From positions 1-44,809 of IMG/VR virus record IMGVR_UViG_3300042868_008486: a stretch of DNA of 44,809 nt. The stretch is one strand, 5' to 3'. This stretch comes from a virus. Taxonomy: Duplodnaviria > Heunggongvirae > Uroviricota > Caudoviricetes. A program made the position numbers and the translations under genes. The notes under the pieces were generated by a model. That model was not told where the DNA came from. It saw nothing but the letters and a program-made list of their open reading frames with translations, and searched no databases. Below, piece after piece: positions 2,462 to 15,131 of the stretch; within the stretch, counting starts at the first letter, position 1; every line of letters starts with the position of its first letter.

Positions 2462-2488
2462 TAAAAAAAAGTGGGTTTCCCCACTTTT
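2462..2488. terminator. intrinsic terminator
   Basis: AAAAGTGGG-tttc-CCCACTTTT hairpin with A/T tracts. Confidence 0.75.
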
Positions 2489-3542
2489 ATAACTTTTTGA
2501 ACTCAGGTCTTATTAGTCTCCATATAGTTTCGTCGTAATCTTTTTTATCCCACATTTGAAACATCACACCTCTAAGTCCTTCTTTTATGTTTTTCATAAC
2601 AAACTCTGCGTATTCTTTCTTAGTTGGTTCAGGGTCAACATCACCATATTTCCCGTATCTAAACCCATCGTGCATTTTACCACAATATTCAGATATTGAA
2701 TAGTGAGCGTATCTCAAATCTTTAACGTAAGATTTTATTTTAGAATAGAATTCATCAGGAACTTCTTTCATCATTTCTAAAACATCATCACCATTTCTCA
2801 AACATTCCCATATACCGGTAGTAGATACGTTAGTCATTATTTTATGTAGACGTAAGTATTCCACACCTTTAACTTTCATTCTATCACCATTTGAGAATAA
2901 CACTATAAACCCTTCAGCGTCGTCTCTAACCATTTGTTTTAACACAGAATAGTCAGATATACCATCGTAACGTTTAACAACTTTTAAACCGATATTTCGT
3001 ATAAGATTTTGTATTCTCATATCTAAATCCCCGTGTAAGTTTACTTCATATCCGTGTTTAGTGTTTGTCGAGCCAAGTAAAACAACATCTTCAAAATCAT
3101 ATGAACAAACTATTCTGTTTTCAGCATATATTATTTCAAATAAGTAAGTGAAGTCTTTATGTAATTTGTTGTAATCATAATTAGATAACATTTCCATACC
3201 TTTCACCGCTTGGTCGGAAGTAAATGAACCACGAGTTGCCATAACCCATTCCCCTTCGTAGTGGAATAATATCCCCAATGAACCATCCATTTTCTCATAG
3301 ACTTTGAAATCATCAGTTGGGGTGTGTTTACCTTCCTCCATATTGAAGAATTTTCTAAATGGTCTTGCAACTATATTACCGTTGTCGTCAGTTACTAAAC
3401 CACGACACATCAAAGTCACCTCATCCCATAAGTTCTCAAACTGAACTTTCTCAGTGTAATTCCATATGGTTAATGGTAAAGTTGGATGTACTTGTTTGTA
3501 CAATAACCCATCATTGTAATATTTTTCTAAAGTTGCTTTCAT
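2487..3542 (-). CDS. RNA ligase, T4 Rnl1/RnlA family
   Basis: KFFN, EKMDGSL (motif I), ATRGSF, EGF, KVK. Confidence 0.9.
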   Translation of the reverse strand: MKATLEKYYNDGLLYKQVHPTLPLTIWNYTEKVQFENLWDEVTLMCRGLVTDDNGNIVARPFRKFFNMEEGKHTPTDDFKVYEKMDGSLGILFHYEGEWVMATRGSFTSDQAVKGMEMLSNYDYNKLHKDFTYLFEIIYAENRIVCSYDFEDVVLLGSTNTKHGYEVNLHGDLDMRIQNLIRNIGLKVVKRYDGISDYSVLKQMVRDDAEGFIVLFSNGDRMKVKGVEYLRLHKIMTNVSTTGIWECLRNGDDVLEMMKEVPDEFYSKIKSYVKDLRYAHYSISEYCGKMHDGFRYGKYGDVDPEPTKKEYAEFVMKNIKEGLRGVMFQMWDKKDYDETIWRLIRPEFKKL

Positions 3543-3554
3543 ACAACAAATATA

Positions 3555-4496
3555 CTAAATTCTTTTAATAATCGTACCGTCTGAATAGTGAAAAAATTTC
3601 ATTCCAGGTGAATCTACCGTAACGTCTTGACCTAATGTGTTTGTTATCTTAATTAATTCGGGGGTGAATTTACGATTATCAATTGATATGATATTAAAAT
3701 CTTTTGATTTACCATCATAATCGGTTTGCGTTAAATAATAATATGAAATATCATTAAAATAACCCCTCTCTAAGTATTGGTAAAAATGCGTAAATGATGA
3801 GGTTCCGACACCATCAACTTTTGCGACTTCCACCCAATTAATTGGGTAATATGTTTTAAAAATTGTGAAGAATTGATTATTAGTTTCTGTGGCAGTCGCC
3901 CATTCAAGTAAATTACCATCCTCAGTTTGTTTACCCTTGAAGTATAATAATTCAATAGGTAAACCTACAGGTTCAGATTCAAAGATTGATAAGTCATCTA
4001 AATATGCTGATGTTGGACCACCATAGATTGTGTTAGTCCATATTTGAAAATAACCCGACCCTGCGTATGTGGATAATATAGTAAACGACCATTGATACCA
4101 AGTATTCCAATTTGAATTACAACTTGAGTTAGTTTGATTATCAGTTGTTAATAATGTTGTTTGATTTGGTAACTCATTAGTGTTTACAACTACCGAACAA
4201 ACACGTTTTGTGTAAAAGGTTATTGTGTAATTATAATTCGCTTTAAAAGTAATAGGAATATAAATATAAATTGAATTACCATTTGCCGCGGATGAAAATC
4301 TTGAGGAATACTTCGTCGCGTCAAAAACATTACGATAATTTCCTGTGGCACTTTCATTCCTGTTAAAGACCCAAACATTTGAAGTTGATGACCATCCTGA
4401 TGGTGATACACTTGAGAAGTGTTGGTCAACAAGATAAGTCTGTCCATAAGTGAATATAGACAGACTTAACATTAAGATATTAATTAAAGTTTTCAT
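3555..4496 (-). CDS. secreted Bacteroidota-type protein with T9SS-like C-terminus
   Basis: Signal peptide; LPIELLYFKG...LEWATATETNN domain; terminal LIKITNTLGQ...YSDGTIIK. Confidence 0.65.
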   Translation of the reverse strand: MKTLINILMLSLSIFTYGQTYLVDQHFSSVSPSGWSSTSNVWVFNRNESATGNYRNVFDATKYSSRFSSAANGNSIYIYIPITFKANYNYTITFYTKRVCSVVVNTNELPNQTTLLTTDNQTNSSCNSNWNTWYQWSFTILSTYAGSGYFQIWTNTIYGGPTSAYLDDLSIFESEPVGLPIELLYFKGKQTEDGNLLEWATATETNNQFFTIFKTYYPINWVEVAKVDGVGTSSFTHFYQYLERGYFNDISYYYLTQTDYDGKSKDFNIISIDNRKFTPELIKITNTLGQDVTVDSPGMKFFHYSDGTIIKRI

Positions 4497-5527
4497 TTCT
4501 CATTTAATAAGAATTTATTAGAGATTGCTTTGAAACTGATTTTTCTGTCGTGTGAACGAATAACTAGCCCCTCTCTTTCGGTTTTAATATTTAAAACAGA
4601 CTTACCTTCAGCCATTAACAATAATTCATCAATTGTTTCAGGTAATGTAAAATCTAAGTCGAGAATTGGAACCGTTTTCACTTCCAAAATTTTAGTCAAT
4701 TCAAGCAAATCATCTAACGATAAATAGTCGTACTTGTCAATATCAAATCCGTTGAATATTCTAACTGTTTGACCAATACGTTGGTAAGGATTTCCTTGAA
4801 TTCCTTCACCGATGATTTCACCTTGTACCGCAAGGTTTTTCTCCAATCCAACCAACTTATCACGTAATCCTGATTCGATTGCGAATTTCCACATAGAATT
4901 GTTCACATCCTCCAATAAATCCAAGTTTCTTGAACACACTCCAAATACCCCGTCTTTAACGTAGTAAGTTACACTAGAACCATCTAATTTCTCAGTTACG
5001 TAGAATTTCGCCAATTTGTAGATAGGGTATTCTTTTGTCAAGTTTTGAACTCTTTCTTCATCAGTTTTCTTTAAAAATGAAGGAAAATTACCTTTAACTT
5101 GTCCTGCCAATTGTGCGGGAATTGGTGGTTCGTATTTCACAATGTTTAACATTTCTGTTACGTCAAGACCTTCAAACCAACCCATATCCATATTCGGTGT
5201 GTTTCTTTTGAAAACATCGTAAGCCTCTTTAAGGGGTAAGATTAACCCTTGAGAGATTTGACCTCGTAATCTGATTGTTTTCAAACGGAAACCTTCATTA
5301 CCGTCCGCCATTTTTTTGTATGAACTCTTACGTAAAAATTCAAACTCAGGTTCAATAGGTAAAAATGAGTCAACCTCACAGTAAACAATTAAGTCACCTA
5401 CTTTATGATTTACATCTTTAGCAACAACAACTTTCCATCCGTCAATTGTTGCCAATTCAATTTTGTCAGCCCCTTCGATTGGACTTAAATCAGAAATTTG
5501 TCTAATACTCGCTAATTTTCTTTCCAT
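4493..5527 (-). CDS. RNA ligase, DRB0094 family
   Basis: N-terminal RKLASI...IEGADKIE, KTDEERVQN, TEKLDGSS, QGE, EGLV, FKAISNKFL. Confidence 0.9.
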   Translation of the reverse strand: MERKLASIRQISDLSPIEGADKIELATIDGWKVVVAKDVNHKVGDLIVYCEVDSFLPIEPEFEFLRKSSYKKMADGNEGFRLKTIRLRGQISQGLILPLKEAYDVFKRNTPNMDMGWFEGLDVTEMLNIVKYEPPIPAQLAGQVKGNFPSFLKKTDEERVQNLTKEYPIYKLAKFYVTEKLDGSSVTYYVKDGVFGVCSRNLDLLEDVNNSMWKFAIESGLRDKLVGLEKNLAVQGEIIGEGIQGNPYQRIGQTVRIFNGFDIDKYDYLSLDDLLELTKILEVKTVPILDLDFTLPETIDELLLMAEGKSVLNIKTEREGLVIRSHDRKISFKAISNKFLLNEK

Positions 5528-5687
5528 TTGTTCTTGTGTTAAATAATTTTATATATTTTATTCTCAATGTTTTGTATTGTCTTATCATAAACTGACTTAT
5601 ATTGTCAGGGTTTGATGAATGTAATTCAATCATATAATTGGTTGACCTTACCTCATCCAATAAATCGAGTAATTCATATTTTTCCAT
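5502..5687 (-). CDS. hypothetical protein
   Basis: ORF packed in operon; start moved to MEKYELL. Confidence 0.5.
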   Translation of the reverse strand: MEKYELLDLLDEVRSTNYMIELHSSNPDNISQFMIRQYKTLRIKYIKLFNTRTNGKKISEY

Positions 5688-6036
5688 CGTCAATTCTTTT
5701 AACCATTTCCGATTGTGTGTATACTTCCTCACCCGATTCAAATTTAATCAATAAATCTAAATTCACAACTTTATTATCCATATATTTTTCAGTGTAAGTG
5801 TAATTACAATTTGTTTGAATAACAATACCGTGGTTTTGAAATAATTTATCAATCCCTGACCGGTGTTTTAACGTGTCTTTATCAATGTTATAACTACCAT
5901 CCCAAATCAAGACTCTATCACCTACATCTTTAATTCTATCGTCTTTATGTTGTTTGATATACTCTTGTATTTCTTTTAACATATTAACCGATTCTAAGAA
6001 TAAATCATCTTGATTATTTTCGTCGTAAGTTTCCAT
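5674..6036 (-). CDS. hypothetical protein
   Basis: 120-aa ORF in operon. Confidence 0.7.
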   Translation of the reverse strand: METYDENNQDDLFLESVNMLKEIQEYIKQHKDDRIKDVGDRVLIWDGSYNIDKDTLKHRSGIDKLFQNHGIVIQTNCNYTYTEKYMDNKVVNLDLLIKFESGEEVYTQSEMVKRIDDGKI

Positions 6037-6041
6037 AATAA

Positions 6042-6710
6042 TTAACCAATAACATTTAACATTTCATCAGTGTGGTGGTCCTTTTCAATCTCAGAATGAA
6101 TTGGTTGTCTATCTAACAATGGAACCAACTCTCCCATAAGATTGTATGGTCTAAACTCTAAATGACCATCAATACCAGCATCAATTCTTCTCCCTTTTCC
6201 TAATCTTCTATTGTTAGGTAAGTGACAGTGACCGTGTATGTGCATCGCACCTTTACGTAAGTTATTCCACGAGTCAATTGGGTAGTGCATCAATTGAATT
6301 TCTCTTTTCCCAATCTTCAATGTGTTGTAGTGAGAAACACTCAAAAACAATTCTTGAACGTTGTCTTTATTATTCTCAATGTGGTGGTCGTGATTCCCCA
6401 AGATTAAGTGTATGTTTTTACATACAACTCTATCTCTGAATTTTCGGATTGACTCGAACCCACCAAAAGACCAATCACCCAAGTGAATTAAGATATCGTC
6501 TTCTTTAACGTATTGGTTAATGTTATTAACTATTGTGTCATTCATTAAATCAAGATTACTGAAGTCACGAGTTTCTTTAATTGGAATTGAACCGTCAGGT
6601 TTTCTCCAACTTGTTGTACCACGACAAATGTTTGTGTGATTGTAGTGAGTATCTGATGTTACCCAAACATTTGGGTATTTTCCTTGTTTATTTGCGTTAA
6701 TTTTAATCAT
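6042..6710 (-). CDS. calcineurin-like metallophosphoesterase
   Basis: SDTH, HLGD, GNHD, HYP, HGHCH. Confidence 0.9.
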   Translation of the reverse strand: MIKINANKQGKYPNVWVTSDTHYNHTNICRGTTSWRKPDGSIPIKETRDFSNLDLMNDTIVNNINQYVKEDDILIHLGDWSFGGFESIRKFRDRVVCKNIHLILGNHDHHIENNKDNVQELFLSVSHYNTLKIGKREIQLMHYPIDSWNNLRKGAMHIHGHCHLPNNRRLGKGRRIDAGIDGHLEFRPYNLMGELVPLLDRQPIHSEIEKDHHTDEMLNVIG

Positions 6711-7227
6711 ATTGTAAATCTAGTAATTTTTCACCACTAAACCAAGATGGAACGTCTCTTTTTTTCCACGCCGCCAAATCTGATTTAGCTCCTTTATAAT
6801 ATTTTCGGTAAGATAATACTGCCGAGGTGATAGGATGACAATAACTTACCGTTTTAAACTCGTCTGGCATCGCCAATGGGGGACAAGTGAATTCTGTGTC
6901 AGGAATGTTTGGTCTGTTGAATAGACACCATTTAATGACCTCAACCGATTTATGAGTTTTACCATATCTAAATGTATATTCTTCACCCAACGCTAAACCT
7001 AATTCACACAAGTACAAATAGTTTGGTAATGTCTCACGAGCCCAAATCGCACAAGGGTGGTTCTTATGTGTCATCTTGTATGGGATTAGTTCTTTATCCA
7101 CATTACCAGTTAAATGTTGAACTGAACACAATAGTTGTGCAGTTTCCAATATCATTTTAACAACGTGTTTGTCTACGTGATATTGTGCATTTTTCTTAAC
7201 GTCGGTATCTAAAAAGAATATGTTCAT
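6703..7227 (-). CDS. pyrimidine dimer DNA glycosylase / endonuclease V-like protein
   Basis: MNIFFLD, HVVKMILETAQLL, THKNHPCAIW, AMPD. Confidence 0.8.
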   Translation of the reverse strand: MNIFFLDTDVKKNAQYHVDKHVVKMILETAQLLCSVQHLTGNVDKELIPYKMTHKNHPCAIWARETLPNYLYLCELGLALGEEYTFRYGKTHKSVEVIKWCLFNRPNIPDTEFTCPPLAMPDEFKTVSYCHPITSAVLSYRKYYKGAKSDLAAWKKRDVPSWFSGEKLLDLQYD

Positions 7228-7228
7228 A

Positions 7229-7687
7229 TTATACAGTATGTTCAATTTGTACTCTAACACAAGTTTGTGATTGTCCTTCATTCATCAAGAAGTTGTTACA
7301 ATACCCCATTATATTAGCGGACCCAATTGGGTTTGCTGAATGTACAACAATTTCAGGGAACTTAATAGGTTTTTGTTTTTTATCAAATCTTGACATATTG
7401 ATTCTATTCTCATTTAATCCGTAGAATTCTGATACCAACCATTTAATTGCGTCGTAACCTGTTTTTTCTTCGATGTTATCGTAATCTAATTTATAATTTT
7501 TAGATACGTTATTGAAGTATTCTTGCATCGCACTATCACCTAAGTCGTGGTCCAATGAAATTAATTTGATATTAGTTAAACCAACTTTGTTTACCAAATT
7601 AACAAACTCATAGAAGTTTCTTACTACTAACCAATCTTTATCGACAGGTGTTCTTACATCATCTAAATATATTTTTACTTTTTCCAT
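7229..7687 (-). CDS. cyclic-phosphate processing receiver-domain protein
   Basis: YLDDVR, SLDHDLG, TGYD, HSANPIG. Confidence 0.8.
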   Translation of the reverse strand: MEKVKIYLDDVRTPVDKDWLVVRNFYEFVNLVNKVGLTNIKLISLDHDLGDSAMQEYFNNVSKNYKLDYDNIEEKTGYDAIKWLVSEFYGLNENRINMSRFDKKQKPIKFPEIVVHSANPIGSANIMGYCNNFLMNEGQSQTCVRVQIEHTV

Positions 7688-7710
7688 AATCTTTCTTTTA
7701 ACAAATATAA

Positions 7711-8058
7711 TCAATATCTATGAACGTACACTATCAATCCAAGTTTTTTTGATGTGTCTATCATATTTTTAGTCCCTTTACTCTCACCGTCCCAAAACGC
7801 AATTAACATATCACCATATTCGGCCATTTGTCTATTACGGATGTGACCGGCACCTTTACCGTGTTTATTCCAATCGGCAGGAAATACCTTTAAATCAAAA
7901 CCCTTTTCTTTGGAATATTGTTCACCCAATTTATCGGTTCCTCTAGCACCACCACTAACAATTTCAGGTGTGGTAAGTGTTGGTATAACACCGTCACATA
8001 TCTCACGTAGTAATTCATAATCGTTGAATTCTCTACCACCAGCAATAATGACTTTCAT
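7711..8058 (-). CDS. SLOG family (YspA/DUF2493-like) protein
   Basis: IIAGGREF, VSGGARGTD, GHIRN, AFWDGESKGT. Confidence 0.85.
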   Translation of the reverse strand: MKVIIAGGREFNDYELLREICDGVIPTLTTPEIVSGGARGTDKLGEQYSKEKGFDLKVFPADWNKHGKGAGHIRNRQMAEYGDMLIAFWDGESKGTKNMIDTSKKLGLIVYVHRY

Positions 8059-8459: not shown

Positions 8460-8673
8460 AACCACCCCTGAGATTACGGGGTGTAGATGTCCTCAGTTTT
8501 TCTTATACAAAACCCAACGCGTCTTACCGCTTAAAAATCAACCATTACGTCGGAGTGAGGATGGTGTTCCACACTATTAGCCCAACGACCCCCTTTACAA
8601 ATCCTAATGAGGTATCAGATATATCATTGTTTAAGTAACGATACCAAATCTAGTGAGTTTCTCGAACTCATTG

Positions 8674-8748
8674 TGGAGACAGTGGGAATCGAACCCACCA
8701 CACGGTGATTGCAAATCATCATCGCCACGCCTTGGAACATTTGCCCCC
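8674..8748 (-). tRNA. trnA: tRNA-Ala(TGC)
   Basis: Cloverleaf, loop TT-TGC-AA, G3:U70, A73. Confidence 0.9.
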
Positions 8749-8860
8749 AAATTTAGACAACAGGTAATACTCACATTTATTATTACCTAACTCAACGACC
8801 TCTGCAGTTGTGAATCTGTTTTAAAGGTTTTCCTCGGTGAAGAGTTTGTTGTCTATTTTT

Positions 8861-9019
8861 TTATTTGAAAGACTTTGATTGGTCCTCCCTATTTAATTCT
8901 TTCTCAATGTAGATATTGACCATATGTATTAGTGTGTCAGAATCAATATCAATTGTTTGACTTTCCTTACTTTCTTTCAGAAACGGAAAGATATTTTTAA
9001 AATACTCCTCGAATTTCAT
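8861..9019 (-). CDS. small hypothetical protein (52 aa, MKFEEYFKNIF)
   Basis: Read manually; follows upstream ORF directly. Confidence 0.5.
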   Translation of the reverse strand: MKFEEYFKNIFPFLKESKESQTIDIDSDTLIHMVNIYIEKELNREDQSKSFK

Positions 9020-9023
9020 TTTA

Positions 9024-9356
9024 TTATAACTTTATAAATGTTTCATTTTTGATTGATTTACTAATCCATCTTGCTAATTCAGAACCTCTTATTTCCGAAT
9101 TGAAAGAAGTTGTCCCAAGGTCTTCAGATAATGTTGTGACCACATCTGACTCCTTAACTTTCGCACCAACTTCTAATGTTGATACATTATGTGTGACCTT
9201 TACATCAACTGTTGAAATTGGAAACTCGTACATATCACCAAAAACCTCAATCTTGTAATACAAATTACCTGCAATATAGTGACTAAATTTAGCCATTGCT
9301 TTAGACTTCATTAAGTCTTTTTTAATTTCAGTTTCGTTTAACTCAATTGTAACCAT
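9024..9356 (-). CDS. hypothetical protein
   Basis: ORF within tRNA array; start uncertain. Confidence 0.65.
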   Translation of the reverse strand: MVTIELNETEIKKDLMKSKAMAKFSHYIAGNLYYKIEVFGDMYEFPISTVDVKVTHNVSTLEVGAKVKESDVVTTLSEDLGTTSFNSEIRGSELARWISKSIKNETFIKL

Positions 9357-9663
9357 TTTCCAATTTCCATTTATTATGTAATTCATTTATTGTGTGATAA
9401 GGACTACCTACACCTTCATAAATCTCATCAAAACCATTTTCTTTAGTAATAACAGATTCTTCAGCTTTAATTGCCCCCCTATATTTATCCCCGTAACTTC
9501 CTTGAACTGTTTTTGTTGCCGGGTCAATATCACCCCAAGATGCTCTCCAACTTCTTGGTTCAATATATTCTACGAAATATTGTTTACCTGTTTCAGGAAA
9601 TACAACAATTTCTTTTCCTGTTTCGTCTCGATTTACTAAGAAATCTCTTTTTACATCTTCCAT
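9343..9663 (-). CDS. hypothetical protein
   Basis: 106-aa ORF within tRNA array. Confidence 0.75.
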   Translation of the reverse strand: MEDVKRDFLVNRDETGKEIVVFPETGKQYFVEYIEPRSWRASWGDIDPATKTVQGSYGDKYRGAIKAEESVITKENGFDEIYEGVGSPYHTINELHNKWKLENGYN

Positions 9664-9692
9664 AACTGACTGTTATACTGTTTATTTTATTG

Positions 9693-9765
9693 AGCGGGTG
9701 GGGGGAATCGAACCCTCGTCCTTAGATTGGAAGTCTAATATAATAAGCCACTATACGACACCCGC
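9693..9765 (-). tRNA. trnG: tRNA-Gly(TCC)
   Basis: TTAGA-CT-TCC-AA-TCTAA, GCG start, U73. Confidence 0.93.
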
Positions 9766-9851
9766 AATTTGGGTAGAATCAGACGCGTTCTGTCTACCGA
9801 GACCTCGACGTTGTACTATGTTTCAAGTCAGAGCGTACCGAGACACTATTG

Positions 9852-9931
9852 TGAACCTGGAGGGAGTCGAACCCTCAATCCTAAAAATCGCGGCTTAAAC
9901 ACGACGCGTATACCAATTTCGCCACAGGTCC
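9852..9931 (-). tRNA. trnL: tRNA-Leu(TAA)
   Basis: TCGTG-TT-TAA-GC-CGCGA; 11-nt variable region. Confidence 0.88.
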
Positions 9932-9937
9932 TTTTTG

Positions 9938-10010
9938 TACCCCTACAGGGATTCTAACCCCGATTAAACCCTTAGAAGGGGTTGGTCCTATACAGTTGAA
10001 CGATAGGGGC
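9938..10010 (-). tRNA. trnR: tRNA-Arg(TCT)
   Basis: AACCC-CT-TCT-AA-GGGTT; variant T loop TTAGAAT. Confidence 0.85.
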
Positions 10011-10019
10011 GAATTATTG

Positions 10020-10091
10020 CGGACTATGTAGGATTCGAACCTACGACCTATCCGTTAACAGCGGAGTGCTCTACCACTGAGCTAATAGTCC
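10020..10091 (-). tRNA. trnN: tRNA-Asn(GTT)
   Basis: CTCCG-CT-GTT-AA-CGGAT, G73. Confidence 0.93.
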
Positions 10092-10103
10092 ATTTAATTG
10101 TTG

Positions 10104-10176
10104 AGGTCCCTAACGGATTCGAACCGTTATCCCTGGGTTACAAAGCCAGAATAATAAGCCATTATACTAAGAGACC
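10104..10176 (-). tRNA. trnT: tRNA-Thr(TGT)
   Basis: CTGGC-TT-TGT-AA-CCCAG (C31:C39 mismatch). Confidence 0.88.
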
Positions 10177-10319
10177 AATTAAGAGTGTTATTAATTCGTT
10201 TTACCTAAGACCGCGAATCCACGTAAAACTCAACTTCACCAATATTTTTACTGCAGTTCCAATATTGTCACATTGCTACTATATTGAACTAATAACTACG
10301 AATTACCCATCATAATTTC

Positions 10320-10392
10320 ACCATCGTTAGGGCTCGAACCTAAAGCTTCCGACTCCACGTCAGATGTGTTGACCAATTTACACCACTAGTTA
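10320..10392 (-). ncRNA. degenerate tRNA-like element (TGG-centred loop lacking U33, acceptor poorly paired)
   Basis: D arm GTGT-AAATTGGTCA-ACAC, T arm TTAGG-TTCGAGC-CCTAA. Confidence 0.5.
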
Positions 10393-10423
10393 CTTAGATT
10401 GACAAATAATTGTTTTTCTCTTT

Positions 10424-10498
10424 GCTGAATAATAAGGGTTCGAACCTTAATCTGAAATCCGTATTACCATCATCCGTGCTCCATTACACTATATCCAA
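10424..10498 (-). ncRNA. degenerate tRNA-like element without a clear anticodon arm
   Basis: D arm GTGT-AATGGA-GCAC, T arm TAAGG-TTCGAAC-CCTTA, weak acceptor stem. Confidence 0.45.
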
Positions 10499-10547
10499 TC
10501 GACAGTTTCGAACCTGTCATATAAAGGGTTATAACTCCTTTATTTTG

Positions 10548-10619
10548 CGGTCTATGCGAGAATCGAACTCGCGGCACATCCGTGACAGGGATGTATGTTA
10601 GCCACTACACCAATAGACC
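10548..10619 (-). tRNA. trnD: tRNA-Asp(GTC)
   Basis: CATCC-CT-GTC-AC-GGATG, G73. Confidence 0.93.
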
Positions 10620-10810
10620 ATAATAAAAACAAGTTTTTCGTGACCTTTACACATCATAACCAATTTTACTCGGTGATTACATTTTCGTCATTGGGGTAGC
10701 TAATCCCCGACTTATAGTAATTCTACCCTCAATACTTTACTATCGCGAATCAAGTACCATCTTGGGATTTATAGACAGTGAGGGTTTACTCACCGTCTTC
10801 ACTTGTTTAG

Positions 10811-10882
10811 TAGCGGGTACAGGATTCGAACCTGTGTCTTTGGGTTATGAGCCCAACGGGGTGACCACTCCCCCAACCCGCG
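10811..10882 (-). tRNA. trnfM: tRNA-fMet(CAT), initiator
   Basis: C1:U72 mismatch, GGG/CCC anticodon stem. Confidence 0.9.
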
Positions 10883-10887
10883 ATATG

Positions 10888-10964
10888 AATTACCCATAGG
10901 ACTCGAACCTACAACCCTTCGCCCTTTTGAGCGATGTGCAAACCAATTTACACCATAAGTAATT
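10888..10964 (-). ncRNA. tRNA-like RNA with a 4-nt AAAA loop replacing the anticodon loop
   Basis: D arm GTGT-AAATTGGTTT-GCAC, TCGCTC-AAAA-GGGCGA, T arm GTAGG-TTCGAGT-CCTAT, paired ends. Confidence 0.6.
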
Positions 10965-11059
10965 AATCAAGAACAATAAACAGAAATTAGTGTCGACAAA
11001 TTTCCTTAGGCAATATGTTTATTTTCTTGTTAGGGTTCGGTTAATTACTCCGACCTTTG

Positions 11060-11133
11060 TATCGCGTACGGGATTCGAACCCGTGATTTTCACCTTGAAA
11101 GGGTGACGACTTAAACCTCTCGTCTAACGCGAC
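11060..11133 (-). tRNA. trnE: tRNA-Glu(TTC)
   Basis: TCACC-CT-TTC-AA-GGTGA. Confidence 0.93.
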
Positions 11134-11150
11134 ATTTTGTTTTTTCTATT

Positions 11151-11220
11151 CCGATATGTCAAAGACCTTTTGTTTTCTTTTGTCTTACAAATCTAATCAT
11201 TTTCTTTTGTTCTCACAAGC
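11151..11220 (-). promoter_or_regulatory. internal promoter (TAGATTTG) plus boxA-like GGTCTTTGACATATCGG
   Basis: Near-duplicate of the 11491-11559 cassette. Confidence 0.65.
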
Positions 11221-11243
11221 TCTTTGTGATATTTTTTTTTCTG

Positions 11244-11317
11244 TAGTTCAGAAGGGATTTGAACCCCCAACCTTGACGATATAAGCGTCCTGCTCTCACC
11301 TGTTGAGCTACTGAACC
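11244..11317 (-). tRNA. trnI: tRNA-Ile(TAT)
   Basis: GGACG-CT-TAT-AT-CGTCA, A73. Confidence 0.88.
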
Positions 11318-11322
11318 AAATA

Positions 11323-11400
11323 CGTTTCACGTTTTAGGCCAATTAAACTAACCGCCCGTCGTCACGGACAGTACCGGAGTCGAACCGATATGTGATAACG
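11323..11400 (-). ncRNA. circularly permuted tRNA-like RNA (T arm, closed acceptor stem, D arm; YrlA-like topology)
   Basis: ATCGG-TTCGACT-CCGGT, ACTGTCCGT-GACG-ACGGGCGGT, TA-GTTT-AATTGGCCTA-AAAC; ends CGTTATCAC/GTGAAACG pair. Confidence 0.75.
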
Positions 11401-11403
11401 AAG

Positions 11404-11477
11404 TACCCTTGGTGGGATTCGAACCCACAAAAAAATAGTTTCTAAAACTATCGTGTATACCTTTCCACCACAAGGGT
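11404..11477 (-). tRNA. trnL: tRNA-Leu(TAG), short variable loop
   Basis: ATAGT-TT-TAG-AA-ACTAT; variable region only T6. Confidence 0.88.
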
Positions 11478-11490
11478 ATCTACTTCTATT

Positions 11491-11559
11491 CCAATATGTC
11501 AATGAACTCTTGTTCTGTTTTGTCTTACAAATCTAATACTTTTATTTTGATTTGCCAAA
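11491..11559 (-). promoter_or_regulatory. promoter (TTTG...TAGATTTG) plus boxA-like GTTCATTGACATATTGG
   Basis: Bacteroidota -33/-7 boxes followed by rrn-leader-like motif. Confidence 0.7.
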
Positions 11560-11569
11560 CTTAGGTCAC

Positions 11570-11601
11570 AAAAAAAACCCCTCTCTTTTGGAGAAGGGTT
11601 T
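11570..11601 (-). terminator. attenuator-type terminator of leader A
   Basis: AAACCCTTCTC-CAAAA-GAGAGGGGTTT followed by T tract. Confidence 0.85.
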
Positions 11602-11624
11602 CATTTAAATTTTATCTTAATGAA

Positions 11625-11702
11625 TTAACACATCTTCTCCGATACACAAGGATTGTCTCCCTCCGTTCTCGCATTTAAAAGTATGTTATTCAAATTTTGC
11701 AT
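11625..11702 (-). CDS. leader peptide A (25 aa, MQNLNNILLNARTEGDNPCVSEKMC)
   Basis: Codons 3-17 are all read by tRNAs of the downstream block; contains GGAGAAG complementary to terminator arm. Confidence 0.8.
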   Translation of the reverse strand: MQNLNNILLNARTEGDNPCVSEKMC

Positions 11703-11787
11703 TGTGTTGTCTTTTTTATTAAATATATTGTACTTTTTGAAAAGTTCAATAGTTAGTGAAAAATTTTTAACAAATTGGTTTAGATTT

Positions 11788-12186
11788 TTAATTTTCAAGT
11801 ACTTCTTTAACAATTTTTGAAACTAAAGTATTGTCGGCTTTACCCTTATATACTTTATTGAAAGCACCCATCATTTTACCAACATTATCAATACCATCTT
11901 TTTTAAATGTTCTGATGATTGAACGGATACTAAATTCATCCATTAACTTTGGTAAATATGGTTTAATGTATTCTAATTCTTTTAAAGATTCATCAGTGTT
12001 TGTCTGTGTTAATGATTTTTCCATTTTCTTTAAAATAGAAAGAACTACCTCATCTGTCACACTAACACCTCTACCTTCTTCATTTTGGATTTCACCTTTT
12101 AGTACACCTAAAAAGTTTTTCTTTTCCATTTCTTTGTTTTTAAATGCCGTCATAAATTCGACATTAATTTGTTCTCTTAGTGACAT
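11788..12186 (-). CDS. GatB/YqeY domain protein
   Basis: MSLREQI...AFKNKE, KGEIQN, YLPKLM, GKMMG, GKAD. Confidence 0.85.
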   Translation of the reverse strand: MSLREQINVEFMTAFKNKEMEKKNFLGVLKGEIQNEEGRGVSVTDEVVLSILKKMEKSLTQTNTDESLKELEYIKPYLPKLMDEFSIRSIIRTFKKDGIDNVGKMMGAFNKVYKGKADNTLVSKIVKEVLEN

Positions 12187-12203
12187 AGTTATTTGTTTTT
12201 AAG

Positions 12204-12284
12204 TGGGTGCGGAGGGATTCGAACCCCCACGCGATTAAGACCTGAGCTACAATCAGGCGAGCCAGCCAATTGCTCAACACACCC
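12204..12284 (-). tRNA. trnY: tRNA-Tyr(GTA), divergent copy
   Basis: CCTGA-TT-GTA-GC-TCAGG, extended variable region. Confidence 0.82.
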
Positions 12285-12359
12285 ATAAAGAAAATATCGT
12301 AGATTGTCCTTCACAATTTAACGGCGGGTTTGAACTTAATCAACTCTCCTACGATATCT

Positions 12360-12445
<86 letters not shown>

Positions 12446-12471
12446 ATTATATGACAATTAATGTCATTTCG

Positions 12472-12543
12472 CGCACCACCAAGGACTCGAACCCTGACCA
12501 AATGGGTTGGAACCATTTATGCTAGCCATTACACCAATGATGC
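12472..12543 (-). tRNA. trnW: tRNA-Trp(CCA)
   Basis: AATGG-TT-CCA-AC-CCATT, G73. Confidence 0.9.
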
Positions 12544-12570
12544 GAATAATGAAATTTTTATATTTCATTG

Positions 12571-12644
12571 AGGACAGAGAGAGGTTCGAACTCCCGAATA
12601 ATGGGTTTGCAGCCCACCCCTTTAGACCACTCAGGCATCTGTCC
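12571..12644 (-). tRNA. trnC: tRNA-Cys(GCA)
   Basis: GTGGG-CT-GCA-AA-CCCAT, U73. Confidence 0.92.
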
Positions 12645-12840
12645 AATTTAATATTAAGTCGCGAGTAATCCATCTGTCGCTTATTACTAGAATCTTGTGG
12701 CTTACTTACTATAGTTCATACCGTTACCACTAGGAAACCCAACTTAATATCTTCGTACTAATTATTTTAGAGATTGGTTCCCGAAGGATTAAACCATCAC
12801 TTGTACTTCGTGTCAGGAGGTAAACCCCATATCTCTAATG

Positions 12841-12912
12841 TAGCCCCTGTAGGACTCGAACCTACACTATCTTGTATGTAAAACAAGTACTTCACCTTTA
12901 AGCTAAAGGGCT
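12841..12912 (-). tRNA. trnV: tRNA-Val(TAC)
   Basis: CTTGT-TT-TAC-AT-ACAAG. Confidence 0.9.
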
Positions 12913-12920
12913 AATTATTG

Positions 12921-12995
12921 TGACCCCGGTGAGAATCGAACTCACGACCCGTACATTAAAAGTGTACTGCTCTAAACCAACTGAGCTACGAAGTC
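12921..12995 (-). tRNA. trnK: tRNA-Lys(TTT)
   Basis: GTACA-CT-TTT-AA-TGTAC. Confidence 0.93.
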
Positions 12996-13118
12996 AAATT
13001 TGGAAGGTCACCACAAACACCTTCCACGGTGAGTATTTTAATGTCGTTTTGTCTAATTACACCTAAGTGTCATAGTCGCAGGTCTCACTTCACGACAAAC
13101 CCGATTGGTATTAAGTAG

Positions 13119-13192
13119 TCGGTACGGTAGGATTTGAACCTACGACCTTTCACGTATCAGGCGAATGCTCTTACCAGCTGAGCTACGTACCG
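13119..13192 (-). tRNA. trnI: tRNA-Ile(GAT)
   Basis: TTCGC-CT-GAT-AC-GTGAA. Confidence 0.92.
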
Positions 13193-13199
13193 TTATTTT

Positions 13200-13274
13200 T
13201 GGTCGGGGTAGCAGGTGTCGAACCTGCCGCCTCTTGGTCCCAAACCAAGCGTCTCACCCCAAGACTATACCCCG
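13200..13274 (-). tRNA. trnP: tRNA-Pro(TGG)
   Basis: CTTGG-TT-TGG-GA-CCAAG, C1:G72, encoded CCA. Confidence 0.92.
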
Positions 13275-13287
13275 TTTGTTTGTTTAA

Positions 13288-13320
13288 CAAAGATAAGTAA
13301 TCATTTTCATTCTCACAATA
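13288..13320 (-). promoter_or_regulatory. internal promoter (TATCTTTG)
   Basis: -7 box 13 nt upstream of tRNA-Pro. Confidence 0.55.
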
Positions 13321-13340
13321 CCTTAGTTAATTTTTTTTTG

Positions 13341-13412
13341 TATCGTTATCAGGACTCGAACCTGAACCCACACCTTATGAGAGTGTTGTGACTACCTTTA
13401 CACTATAACGAC
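13341..13412 (-). tRNA. trnM: tRNA-Met(CAT), elongator (Ile2 not excluded)
   Basis: ACACT-CT-CAT-AA-GGTGT; no initiator features. Confidence 0.8.
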
Positions 13413-13417
13413 GTTTG

Positions 13418-13505
13418 CGGAAGATGTAGGGTTCGAACCTACGCGTCATATTTCAGACCTACTTGTTTAGCAAACAAGCCTCTTTACCAATTTGAGTAAT
13501 CTTCC
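13418..13505 (-). tRNA. trnS: tRNA-Ser(GCT)
   Basis: CTTGT-TT-GCT-AA-ACAAG, long variable arm, G73. Confidence 0.93.
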
Positions 13506-13545
13506 AAAATACACCGACCTAGCTCGGTATCACACATCGGATACG

Positions 13546-13617
13546 TAGTCCCCCAAGGACTCGAACCTTGACATTATCGTCCGTAGCGATAGGTGCTATC
13601 CGTTACACCAAGGAACC
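13546..13617 (-). tRNA. trnR: tRNA-Arg(ACG)
   Basis: TATCG-CT-ACG-GA-CGATA. Confidence 0.92.
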
Positions 13618-13622
13618 AAATA

Positions 13623-13729
13623 ATAAGGTTGGAGACTTATAATCGACCATTATAAGGTTGGAGCCTTATAATCACCCATTATTAGGTCTGAACCTAATAT
13701 TCACCCATTATTAGGTTATAACCTTATAT
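13623..13729. repeat. about 4 tandem 29-bp palindromic units
   Basis: ATWAGG-N6-(C)CTWAT-AWTC..CCATT units starting at 13623, 13652, 13681, 13710. Confidence 0.85.
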
Positions 13730-13908
13730 TGAGTTTTTCTGTAGTGTTTCCAAGTTTTATACATTCTAACTTGATAACTCATTTTGTTTCCGTAGAAACT
13801 TATTCCTTCATCCCAATAAATTGGGTAAAAGTCATTAATCAATCTATTTCGGTATTCTCTACCATTTTGTGCTTTGTTCAGTTTTGCTCTGTTGATGTTT
13901 GTACTCAT
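13711..13908 (-). CDS. small basic hypothetical protein (MSTNINRAKLNK)
   Basis: 65-aa ORF inside tRNA array. Confidence 0.65.
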   Translation of the reverse strand: MSTNINRAKLNKAQNGREYRNRLINDFYPIYWDEGISFYGNKMSYQVRMYKTWKHYRKTQYKVIT

Positions 13909-13934
13909 AGTTGTGGTTTTTAACCTACAACTTG

Positions 13935-14150
13935 TCAAATTTTTTCTTCATTTTGTTTAATGTAATCTAATGCAATGTGTATCAAACCGTTGAGATATTG
14001 CCATTTCGGACTTGCGTTCGGATAATGACCGAATATCTCAACTAATTTTTCTTCTTGCCATTTCCTTTCACTAATGATTGGAGATAACCATCGACCATTT
14101 TCTAAGTCGGCATTTACAAATGTTTTTTCTGTCTCTGCGATTTCTAAGTT
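13935..14150 (-). pseudogene. start-less ORF remnant (LEIAETEKTF...KQNEEKI)
   Basis: 71 sense codons with protein-like composition, no ATG/GTG/TTG near the 5' end. Confidence 0.4.
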
Positions 14151-14164
14151 TTAAAAATTAATTG

Positions 14165-14239
14165 GGAGTATAGTGAGATTCGAACTCACCCTATTAGCAC
14201 CACAAACTAACGTGCTCGACCACTGACACTATATACTCC
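14165..14239 (-). tRNA. trnH: tRNA-His(GTG)
   Basis: TTAGT-TT-GTG-GT-GCTAA; G-1:C73. Confidence 0.92.
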
Positions 14240-14317
14240 ATAAAAACCCCACTTCATCGGATTAATGGACCGACTGCCATATCGGGAGTGGGGGTTTTCC
14301 CATCAGTAGGGACTCCG

Positions 14318-14390
14318 TGGGACAGGAGGGAATCGAACCCCCATTGCTTGTTCTTCAGACAAGTGCCTTGACCAACTTGGCAACTGACCC
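14318..14390 (-). tRNA. trnF: tRNA-Phe(GAA)
   Basis: CTTGT-CT-GAA-GA-ACAAG. Confidence 0.9.
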
Positions 14391-14496
14391 AAATATTTTC
14401 ATCAAATCACCGATTACCACAATTACGGTGAGACCTTCGGGAACTGCCGTCCCGTGTTTTCTTTTTACCCGTGGATTAAACTATTTGATGGGGTAG

Positions 14497-14571
14497 TTGT
14501 CCCGGCAGGAATCGAACCTGCGATATCCACATTCAAAGTGTGGTGGCTCTGCCAACGTCGCCTACAGGACA
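14497..14571 (-). tRNA. trnQ: tRNA-Gln(TTG)
   Basis: CCACA-CT-TTG-AA-TGTGG, U1:A72. Confidence 0.9.
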
Positions 14572-14578
14572 ATAATGG

Positions 14579-14704
14579 TTACTTACGTAACCTTTTGATT
14601 AATTTTCTCAACAACCTAAATTTTATTTTAACCTCTTTAGGTTGTTGTCTTAACATTACTCTACTTGACTCAAATGTTCCCGTCAATACTTCTCTTTTTT
14701 TCAT
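14579..14704 (-). CDS. small basic peptide (41 aa, MKKREVLTG)
   Basis: Read manually; fills gap between tRNA-Ser and tRNA-Gln. Confidence 0.4.
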   Translation of the reverse strand: MKKREVLTGTFESSRVMLRQQPKEVKIKFRLLRKLIKRLRK

Positions 14705-14719
14705 TTTACTTTTATTTTG

Positions 14720-14802
14720 CGGAAGACGAGGGAATCGAACCCCCAAAGCTTTTACACCCAGCCGCTTTCAAGGCGGTGTCCTCGTCCATTCGGGCGCCTT
14801 CC
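14720..14802 (-). tRNA. trnS: tRNA-Ser(TGA)
   Basis: ACCGC-CT-TGA-AA-GCGGC, long variable arm, G73. Confidence 0.92.
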
Positions 14803-14817
14803 GTATTATTATCTAAA

Positions 14818-14879
14818 CCAATATGTCAATGAACTTTTCTGTTGTCAAAGATACAAATTTCATTTTGTAACTTCCAAAT
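14818..14879 (-). promoter_or_regulatory. promoter (TTTG...TATCTTTG) plus boxA-like GTTCATTGACATATTGG
   Basis: 17-mer identical to that at 11491-11507. Confidence 0.7.
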
Positions 14880-14887
14880 TTTATTTC

Positions 14888-14922
14888 AAAAAAAAACCCC
14901 CGAACTTTTGGTTCAGGGGTCT
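14888..14922 (-). terminator. attenuator-type terminator of leader B
   Basis: ACCCCTGAAC-CAAAA-GTTCGGGGGT followed by T tract. Confidence 0.85.
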
Positions 14923-14946
14923 TACTAAATTAATATACGTTTATAT

Positions 14947-15066
14947 TTAACTTAATATGTTTTCTGAACCATATGACGTGCTAAACCACATCGGATACGA
15001 TACGCTACACACGCGAATCTGTTTCGATGGACTTACTTGTTTAATATGTTGTTCAGTTGTTCTCAT
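14947..15066 (-). CDS. leader peptide B (39 aa, MRTTEQHIKQVSPSKQIRVCSVSYPMWFSTSYGSENILS)
   Basis: Not in ORF track; codons 6-29 all read by tRNAs of the downstream block; contains TGGTTCAG complementary to terminator arm. Confidence 0.8.
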   Translation of the reverse strand: MRTTEQHIKQVSPSKQIRVCSVSYPMWFSTSYGSENILS

Positions 15067-15093
15067 TTTTATTATTCTTTTAATATATATCAA

Positions 15094-15123
15094 CAAATTT
15101 AGTAAAAGTTCTTTGGTTGTCAA
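15094..15123 (-). promoter_or_regulatory. promoter of leader B (TTGACA...TAAATTTG)
   Basis: TAnnTTTG box about 27 nt upstream of leader ATG. Confidence 0.55.
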
Positions 15124-15131
15124 GTTTTTTT

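Follow-up and report, generated by a model that had tools for sequence, protein, structure and literature searches.

Leader ORFs upstream of phage tRNA blocks list the codons read by their own block: evidence for a candidate multiplexed transcription attenuator

We analyzed the transfer RNA (tRNA) region of an uncultured giant phage in a window of 44,809 nt, which comprises bases 1–44,809 of the 186,832-base virus record IMGVR_UViG_3300042868_008486 (64% complete, 32% G+C). Two tRNA blocks, here named A and B, are located on the minus strand. Each is preceded by a promoter, a short open reading frame (ORF; here referred to as the leader), an intrinsic terminator and a boxA-like element, together named a cassette. 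An earlier interpretation of the same DNA, the sequence-only reading, had proposed that the leaders sense tRNA shortage by attenuation. The features of both cassettes are:

8673..11477, minus: tRNA block A (Leu-TAG, Ile-TAT, Glu, fMet, Asp, Thr, Asn, Arg-TCT, Leu-TAA, Gly-TCC, Ala-TGC)
11496..11507, minus: boxA-like element behind terminator A
11574..11602, minus: terminator A, intrinsic, 12 bp stem, CAAAA loop, U tract
11625..11702, minus: leader ORF A, 25 aa; homologs kept in L159, L167, L178 and L206
11634..11640, minus: segment 2 of A, predicted antiterminator, GGAGAAG; covariation with the terminator arm seen in 17 homologs
11652..11696, minus: sensor run A, codons 3–17 (15 codons), all for block A tRNAs, 9/9 amino acids
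11678..11692, minus: segment 1 of A, predicted anti-antiterminator
11720..11749, minus: promoter of leader A (TTG, 19 nt, TATATTTA), holding an ATATTTA motif
12203..14802, minus: tRNA block B (Ser-TGA, Gln, Phe, His, Arg-ACG, Ser-GCT, Met, Pro, Ile-GAT, Lys, Val, Cys, Trp, Tyr x2)
14823..14834, minus: boxA-like element (GTTCATTGACAT); motif also behind tRNA-Ala in the ribosomal RNA (rRNA) operon spacer of the Flavobacteriaceae loci L317 and L353
14893..14923, minus: terminator B, intrinsic, 13 bp stem, CAAAA loop, U tract
14947..15066, minus: leader ORF B, 39 aa; homologs kept in L167, L176, L178 and L263
14964..14971, minus: segment 2 of B, predicted antiterminator, TGGTTCAG, complementary to the terminator 5' arm
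14980..15051, minus: sensor run B, codons 6–29 (24 codons), all for block B tRNAs, 13/13 amino acids
15044..15056, minus: segment 1 of B, predicted anti-antiterminator, partner of segment 2 in the absence of leader translation
15094..15123, minus: promoter of leader B, Bacteroidota sigma-A type (TTG, 19 nt, TAnnTTTG), followed by a ATATATTA motif

All tRNAs named by the sequence-only reading were recovered on the minus strand with ARAGORN, tRNA-Ala (8673–8748) and tRNA-Ser-TGA (14719–14802) only at a relaxed threshold. The Met tRNA of block A is an initiator as had been stated, as shown by its C1:U72 mismatch and the three G-C pairs of its anticodon stem. When codons were grouped by amino acid, and additionally by isoacceptor for Ile and Arg, the 61 sense codons were divided into 27 for block A and 34 for block B with zero overlap, and each set accounted for half of the codon use of the phage.

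Both leaders carried an unbroken run of codons for the tRNAs of their own block, as had been described. Based on the phage's own codon usage, the chance of run A was 1.7e-4, and a run like B did not occur in 400,000 trials (<2.5e-6). The isoacceptor-specific choice of codons was present as well, with ATA and AGA in leader A and ATT and CGC in leader B. Control codons were mostly found once or twice per tRNA species, and tandem repeats as in the trp, his and phe leaders were absent. In total, six layouts of a short ORF followed by a terminator were found in the genome, and only leaders A and B precede tRNAs. A comparison of the leaders with Rfam gave no family at or above its gathering score; matches to rnk_leader and Rev39 rest on the terminator.

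Related cassettes were obtained from relatives fetched via the YqeY gene located between the blocks and via the boxA and terminator motifs. They were selected by layout only (ORF of 12–55 codons, stop codon 8–45 nt before a terminator, tRNA within 900 nt), and codon information was not used. The test set comprised 72 unique cassettes whose blocks were complete; their leaders fell into 35 clusters, or 23 under stricter clustering. The core codons matched the own block at 0.77 compared to 0.50 after permutation, a value reached in none of 20,000 permutations. The match persisted within the A-like, B-like and mixed strata and at the 23 stricter clusters; with one representative per cluster, down to 30% identity, the count was still 0/20,000. 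Within the same genome, leaders matched their own block at 0.80 and the other block at 0.18, and the own value was higher in 48 of 48 comparisons. Furthermore, 19 amino acids were each associated with block content (P<0.01), and in 63 of the 72 cassettes the leader listed every amino acid of its block. The codon–anticodon covariation across homologous loci, whose absence the sequence-only reading had named as grounds for its rejection, was strong over 23–35 clusters, within strata and between the blocks of one genome.

The matching extended to isoacceptors. Blocks with Arg-TCT only had an AGR to CGN ratio of 10.6 : 0 in their leaders and blocks with Arg-ACG only one of 0.4 : 9.7. For Ile we found 2.0 ATA to 0.3 with Ile-TAT only and 4.2 to 18.4 with Ile-GAT only. 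In four-codon boxes except Leu, 115 of 152 codons ended in A or G (74 expected) and 71 in G (18 expected). This preference fits the sensing of U34 species because phage tRNAs with U34 read such codons; RNA structure may add to the bias for G.

Individual loci illustrate the same relation. Where the blocks consist of Pro, Gln, Tyr, Thr, Gly and Lys (L011, L014–L016), the leader runs are built of just those six residues. Locus L006 has a tRNA for Thr and none for Cys, L012 the reverse, and their leaders differ in precisely the Thr and Cys residues. In L167 and L206 a tRNA with a CAT anticodon occupies the Ile-TAT slot (second slot of block A) and the leader ATA is retained, which suggests a switch between a lysidine-type and a UAU-type Ile2. 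A further arrangement was observed on the minus strand of L048 (4584–4955, reverse-complement coordinates), where two leader–terminator cassettes are arranged in tandem before a single tRNA block; with such a pair, the response would follow AND-gate logic or become sharper.

The RNA elements of an attenuator were found in the same cassettes. Both CAAAA-loop terminators and both leader segments complementary to the terminator 5' arm, as described earlier, were confirmed. The length of the spacer had been given as 23–25 nt; the gap from stop codon to stem, as defined here, is 22 nt (A) and 23 nt (B). Across the cassettes these gaps ranged from 19 to 36 nt, although 8–45 nt were allowed in the search, so that a ribosome at the stop codon leaves the terminator clear. 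The longest complement of the terminator 5' arm averaged 5.8 nt in the own leader end and 4.1 nt in crossed combinations (0/20,000 permutations). A match of at least 6 nt was present in 37 of 63 leader ends and in none of the 63 5' leader parts. In 17 A-type homologs the helix of segment 2 with the terminator 5' arm (2:3) was 92.6% paired, with three pairs changed on both sides and a covariation score of 0.275, compared to at most 0.127 in slid controls. Both helices, antiterminator and terminator, covary in these homologs, which supports the predicted mutual exclusion of the antiterminator (2:3) and the terminator (3:4). A predicted duplex between segments 1 and 2 was enriched as well (own -10.5, crossed -7.9 kcal/mol, 0/20,000) and occurs in both leaders of the window. 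It may account for the codons at the start of leader B that lack a match.

The position of the switch was modelled by folding the nascent RNA with a ribosome mask. In leader A the antiterminator is predicted to hold up to ribosome codon 17–18 and to collapse at 18–19, and the matched run ends at codon 17. The respective values for leader B are 28–29, 29–30 and 29. The predicted switch thus coincides with the end of the matched run. Over 66 cassettes the codon match was approximately 0.87 just before the predicted switch point and 0.45–0.5 after it. This agreement is independent of the matching test since the fold ignores the tRNA content of the block. According to the ribosome-masked folds, the control codons are located where a stalled ribosome would free segment 2.

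Taken together, the cassettes are very likely multiplexed leader-peptide transcription attenuators which sense slow decoding of the codons of their block. The covariation, the covarying antiterminator and the switch at the end of the matched run support the attenuation that had been proposed earlier. In such a mechanism, RNA polymerase would transcribe the short leader while a host ribosome translates it. If all listed codons are read fast, the ribosome would reach the last 7–10 codons and cover segment 2; the terminator would form and transcription would stop. If any listed tRNA is short, whether cleaved, degraded, diluted, unmodified or uncharged, the ribosome would lag in the sensor run and segment 2 would pair with the terminator 5' arm before the 3' arm is made. 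The polymerase would then read past the boxA-like element into the block holding just those tRNAs. An untranslated leader would fold 1:2 and should terminate. The result would be a negative feedback on the tRNA pool with one loop per block. As trigger, damage by an anticodon nuclease is conceivable, but the ribosome would equally stall under amino-acid starvation or when tRNAs are merely diluted. Decoding would be slowed by nuclease cleavage and starvation as well as by tRNA decay during infection or missing modifications, and the sequence does not tell these causes apart. The isoacceptor matching together with the tRNA output favours tRNA supply as the sensed quantity.

Several points weigh against this mechanism. 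We infer the translation of the leaders and the regulated read-through, as well as the direction of control in vivo and the trigger, and the coupling of transcription and translation in the host is assumed. With only one or two leader codons for most tRNA species, a strong shortage or a summed delay may be needed to flip the switch. The isoacceptor signals of Gly, Leu and Ser are weak, and the Leu codons depart from the A/G-ending rule. Among close homolog pairs with differing blocks, six changes were concordant and two discordant, which is not significant (P=0.14), and in 38 cases within close pairs both leaders keep a codon for which no tRNA was detected; part of these are missed or decayed tRNAs. 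When the finished full-length RNA was folded at equilibrium, the terminator won at nearly every ribosome position and no switch was visible, hence control must be kinetic. Finally, host-type promoters lie downstream of both terminators of the window, and an internal promoter was found behind the terminator in 47 of 144 cassettes.

The last point leads to a rival explanation, in which the attenuator is real and nearly all tRNA of the window phage is nevertheless made from internal promoters, the leaders adding little. It is favoured by consensus promoters and boxA-like elements directly behind both terminators and by two more within the blocks:

11156..11218, minus: second internal promoter (11188–11218) and boxA-like element in block A, before tRNA-Glu
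11528..11559, minus: internal host-type promoter downstream of terminator A
13288..13318, minus: internal host-type promoter in block B, before tRNA-Pro
14846..14877, minus: internal host-type promoter downstream of terminator B

The caveat of the sequence-only reading that such promoters lie just downstream of both terminators holds for the window phage, but does not carry over to 68 of the 144 related cassettes, which have no room for one. Moreover, close relatives retain the leaders together with their helices and codon lists. The promoter pattern was found upstream of 89 of the 144 leaders compared to 1.5% in shuffled sequences, and an ATATTTA motif, which precedes 45 ORFs of the phage genome, is commoner at leader promoters (70/144) than downstream (11/144), suggesting a different time window. 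We therefore regard a marginal role of the leaders as unlikely; in the window phage the attenuator is probably an added inducible layer and not the sole input. We infer that the internal promoters provide an early basal supply, to which the leaders add a layer under feedback control.

A general sensor or timer of ribosome speed, with codon identity as a by-product, would be consistent with leaders A and B jointly sampling the tRNAs for all 61 codons, with the many leader codons that are rare in phage genes, and with the weak signal given by a single codon per species. Such a device is very unlikely, as it would not explain the difference between own and other block within one genome (0.80 vs 0.18), the matching of Arg and Ile at the isoacceptor level, or the end of the matching where stalling ceases to matter. 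The ORFs could also encode functional small peptides or act post-transcriptionally on RNA stability or processing, the terminators merely ending them. The leaders do have their own promoters, an A at -3 is present in 103 of 144, and synonymous changes (180, with 288 non-synonymous) are somewhat above the neutral share. However, the peptides are not conserved between clusters, substitutions are spread evenly over the codon positions (340, 338 and 379), the L206 leader has a stop inside its tail, and a peptide function leaves the covarying 2:3 helix unexplained, all of which makes this highly improbable. Chance or shared ancestry was considered because many of the loci belong to a single broad phage group, motifs of the window were used to retrieve them, and cluster members are not independent. 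This explanation is already largely refuted and its remaining probability is almost negligible: the selection was blind to codons, the permutation result held at one representative per cluster, a phage outside the set (phi17:2, see below) fits, and ancestry alone would not keep non-homologous leaders matched to rearranged blocks.

Cellulophaga phage phi17:2 (KC821609, 87518–87586 and about 88478–88561; L363:4311–4379 and 5271–5354), which lay outside the permutation set and infects Cellulophaga baltica, carries two cassettes. The first leader has 22 codons and is unannotated; its codons 4–14 specify Gln, Arg (CGT), Leu, His, Glu and Pro, and the block holds exactly those tRNAs. The second, annotated as gp077 with an upstream TTG start, lists the nine elongator amino acids (Met excepted) of the next ten tRNAs and uses AGA for Arg-TCT. 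The predicted switch lies at the end of the run in the first leader and approximately three codons before it in the second. Phage phi4:1 is 99% identical to phi17:2 at the cassettes. Since phi17:2 is in culture, a bench test is possible. The Crassvirales phage 'tikkala' has no leader ORF ahead of its tRNA array, hence the device is not universal. A scan of GTDB with the terminator-plus-boxA pattern, which is narrow and may miss cellular cases, found the cassette only in L301 and L331, with leaders homologous to the viral ones. These two are probably phage contigs within bins of bacterial metagenome-assembled genomes.

The leaders trpL, hisL, leuL and pheL and the multivalent thrL and ilvL are transcription attenuators of amino-acid operons. 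Shared with these are the short ORF, the 1:2, 2:3 and 3:4 pairings, the intrinsic terminator and control codons that free segment 2 upon stalling. Apart from tandem control codons, the features of a leader-peptide attenuator that can be read from sequence are present in the cassettes: an own promoter and short ORF before an intrinsic terminator, matching control codons, and, as predictions, exclusive 2:3 and 3:4 pairing, codon placement and 1:2 pairing. They are, however, not members of the amino-acid-operon attenuators, as the regulated genes are tRNAs and not enzymes. They further differ in being phage-encoded, in the extra promoters downstream, in covering 9–13 amino acids (up to 19 in relatives) compared to 1–3 in classic leaders, in mostly giving each of them a codon or two where classic leaders have tandem runs, and in matching at the isoacceptor level. 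In the E. coli pheST attenuator (pheM leader), slow decoding induces the synthetase. The feedback loop resembles that proposed for the phage cassettes, as the component of the translation machinery that is induced counteracts the slow decoding, but pheST responds to one amino acid and controls a synthetase rather than tRNA genes. T-box riboswitches bind uncharged tRNA directly, without a ribosome and with one specifier each. In both systems tRNA status governs antitermination; Rfam gave no match over the leaders to a T-box family, which is defined by a stem I with specifier loop and a T-box bulge. A pheL attenuator has been described (PMC3082878), and there are hints of such leaders in Flavobacterium psychrophilum (PMC9723704). 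The Anabaena trn operon with 26 tRNA genes is likewise a horizontally moved tRNA array that is turned on when translation is impaired, but its induction by translational stress is mediated by the repressor TrcR (PMC8421152, PMC10272220), a protein acting at the promoter without codon specificity, and no attenuation or leader is reported in PMC8421152. The tRNA-rich region of T5 counters retron-Eco7 and PrrC (PMC11555353; hypothesis in PMC10264068). Here too phage tRNAs replace host tRNAs lost to nucleases, but the supply is ascribed to a strong promoter and no leader or attenuation is mentioned. Full-text literature searches, whose coverage lacks most subscription journals, found no description of attenuation of tRNA genes.

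Why phages carry tRNAs has been open for more than 50 years (PMC10264068). A leader which lists the codons of its block implies selection for on-demand tRNA supply when decoding fails, beyond the fitting of codon bias. Since the leader names the tRNAs that the phage monitors, the question becomes testable. If true, attenuation, known for enzyme operons and 1–3 amino acids, would also apply to non-coding outputs and to as many as 19 amino acids, and the cassette would be a compact, programmable sensor of tRNA supply. The chances appear about even that it represents a widespread phage control layer, in which a leader with one codon per tRNA reads the host decoding pool with the logic of an OR gate. 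Each block would in this way sense and make good the damage done by anticodon nucleases, or tRNA loss of another kind, and read-through might continue into downstream RNA-repair genes.

Genes of the RNA-repair type are found co-oriented and directly downstream of block A (2487–8058, minus), and the YqeY-family gene is located between the blocks:

2487–3542, minus: T4 Rnl1-type ligase
4493–5527, minus: second RNA ligase with OB fold
6042–6710, minus: metallophosphoesterase
7229–7714, minus: cREC receiver domain
7711–8058, minus: SLOG protein
11788..12186, minus: YqeY-family gene at the end of block B (PF09424, E 7.7e-17)

A simple scan from terminator A to position 843 revealed no strong terminator, and read-through of block A could therefore extend into the RNA ligase, phosphoesterase, cREC and SLOG genes. 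The YqeY protein carries a GatB-type tRNA-binding domain; 25 relatives were retrieved through its gene, and in most of them it is found close to tRNA arrays.

The host is probably a member of the Bacteroidota because of the TAnnTTTG promoters (consensus in PMC9723704), the missing Shine-Dalgarno sites (compare PMC6847099) and the boxA-like motif shared with Flavobacteriaceae rRNA spacers. Upstream of the 224 ORFs of the phage genome, AGGAG was not found once, and 122 had an A at -3. The genome encodes its own sigma-70-like factor. Neither a CCA-adding enzyme nor TilS was found in the genome record, at its given completeness, and BLAST searches of cultured phages with the tRNA array and with YqeY gave no close relative.

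One 175-nt RNA contig from a single run spans 14888–15062, its end coinciding with the U tract of terminator B, and an RNA contig of a relative spans leader A into tRNA-Leu. The metatranscriptome runs were available as assembled contigs with small word shares, which cannot show ends, strand or level, and neither contig was counted as evidence. With the relaxed ARAGORN threshold, low-scoring tRNA-like calls including CTA and ATG anticodons clustered at G000 C1 118353–122640.

Within block A, tRNA-Ala(TGC) at 8673–8748 (minus) has a G3:U70 pair and a weak D arm, and its Rfam score is higher as transfer-messenger RNA (tmRNA) than as tRNA. A tmRNA was rejected in view of the 76-nt tRNA layout, G3:U70, the TGC loop and the Ala-TGC closing block A in L159 and L178. 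Three tRNA-like sequences (10317–10392, 10423–10499 and 10887–10964, minus) have D and T arms with broken anticodon arms and score below the ARAGORN and Rfam thresholds. One of them resembles Arg-ACG; the three are either decayed tRNAs or decoys. Additionally, the spacer between tRNA-Leu and tRNA-Ile (11323–11400, minus) is rich in hairpins and contains a T-arm motif.

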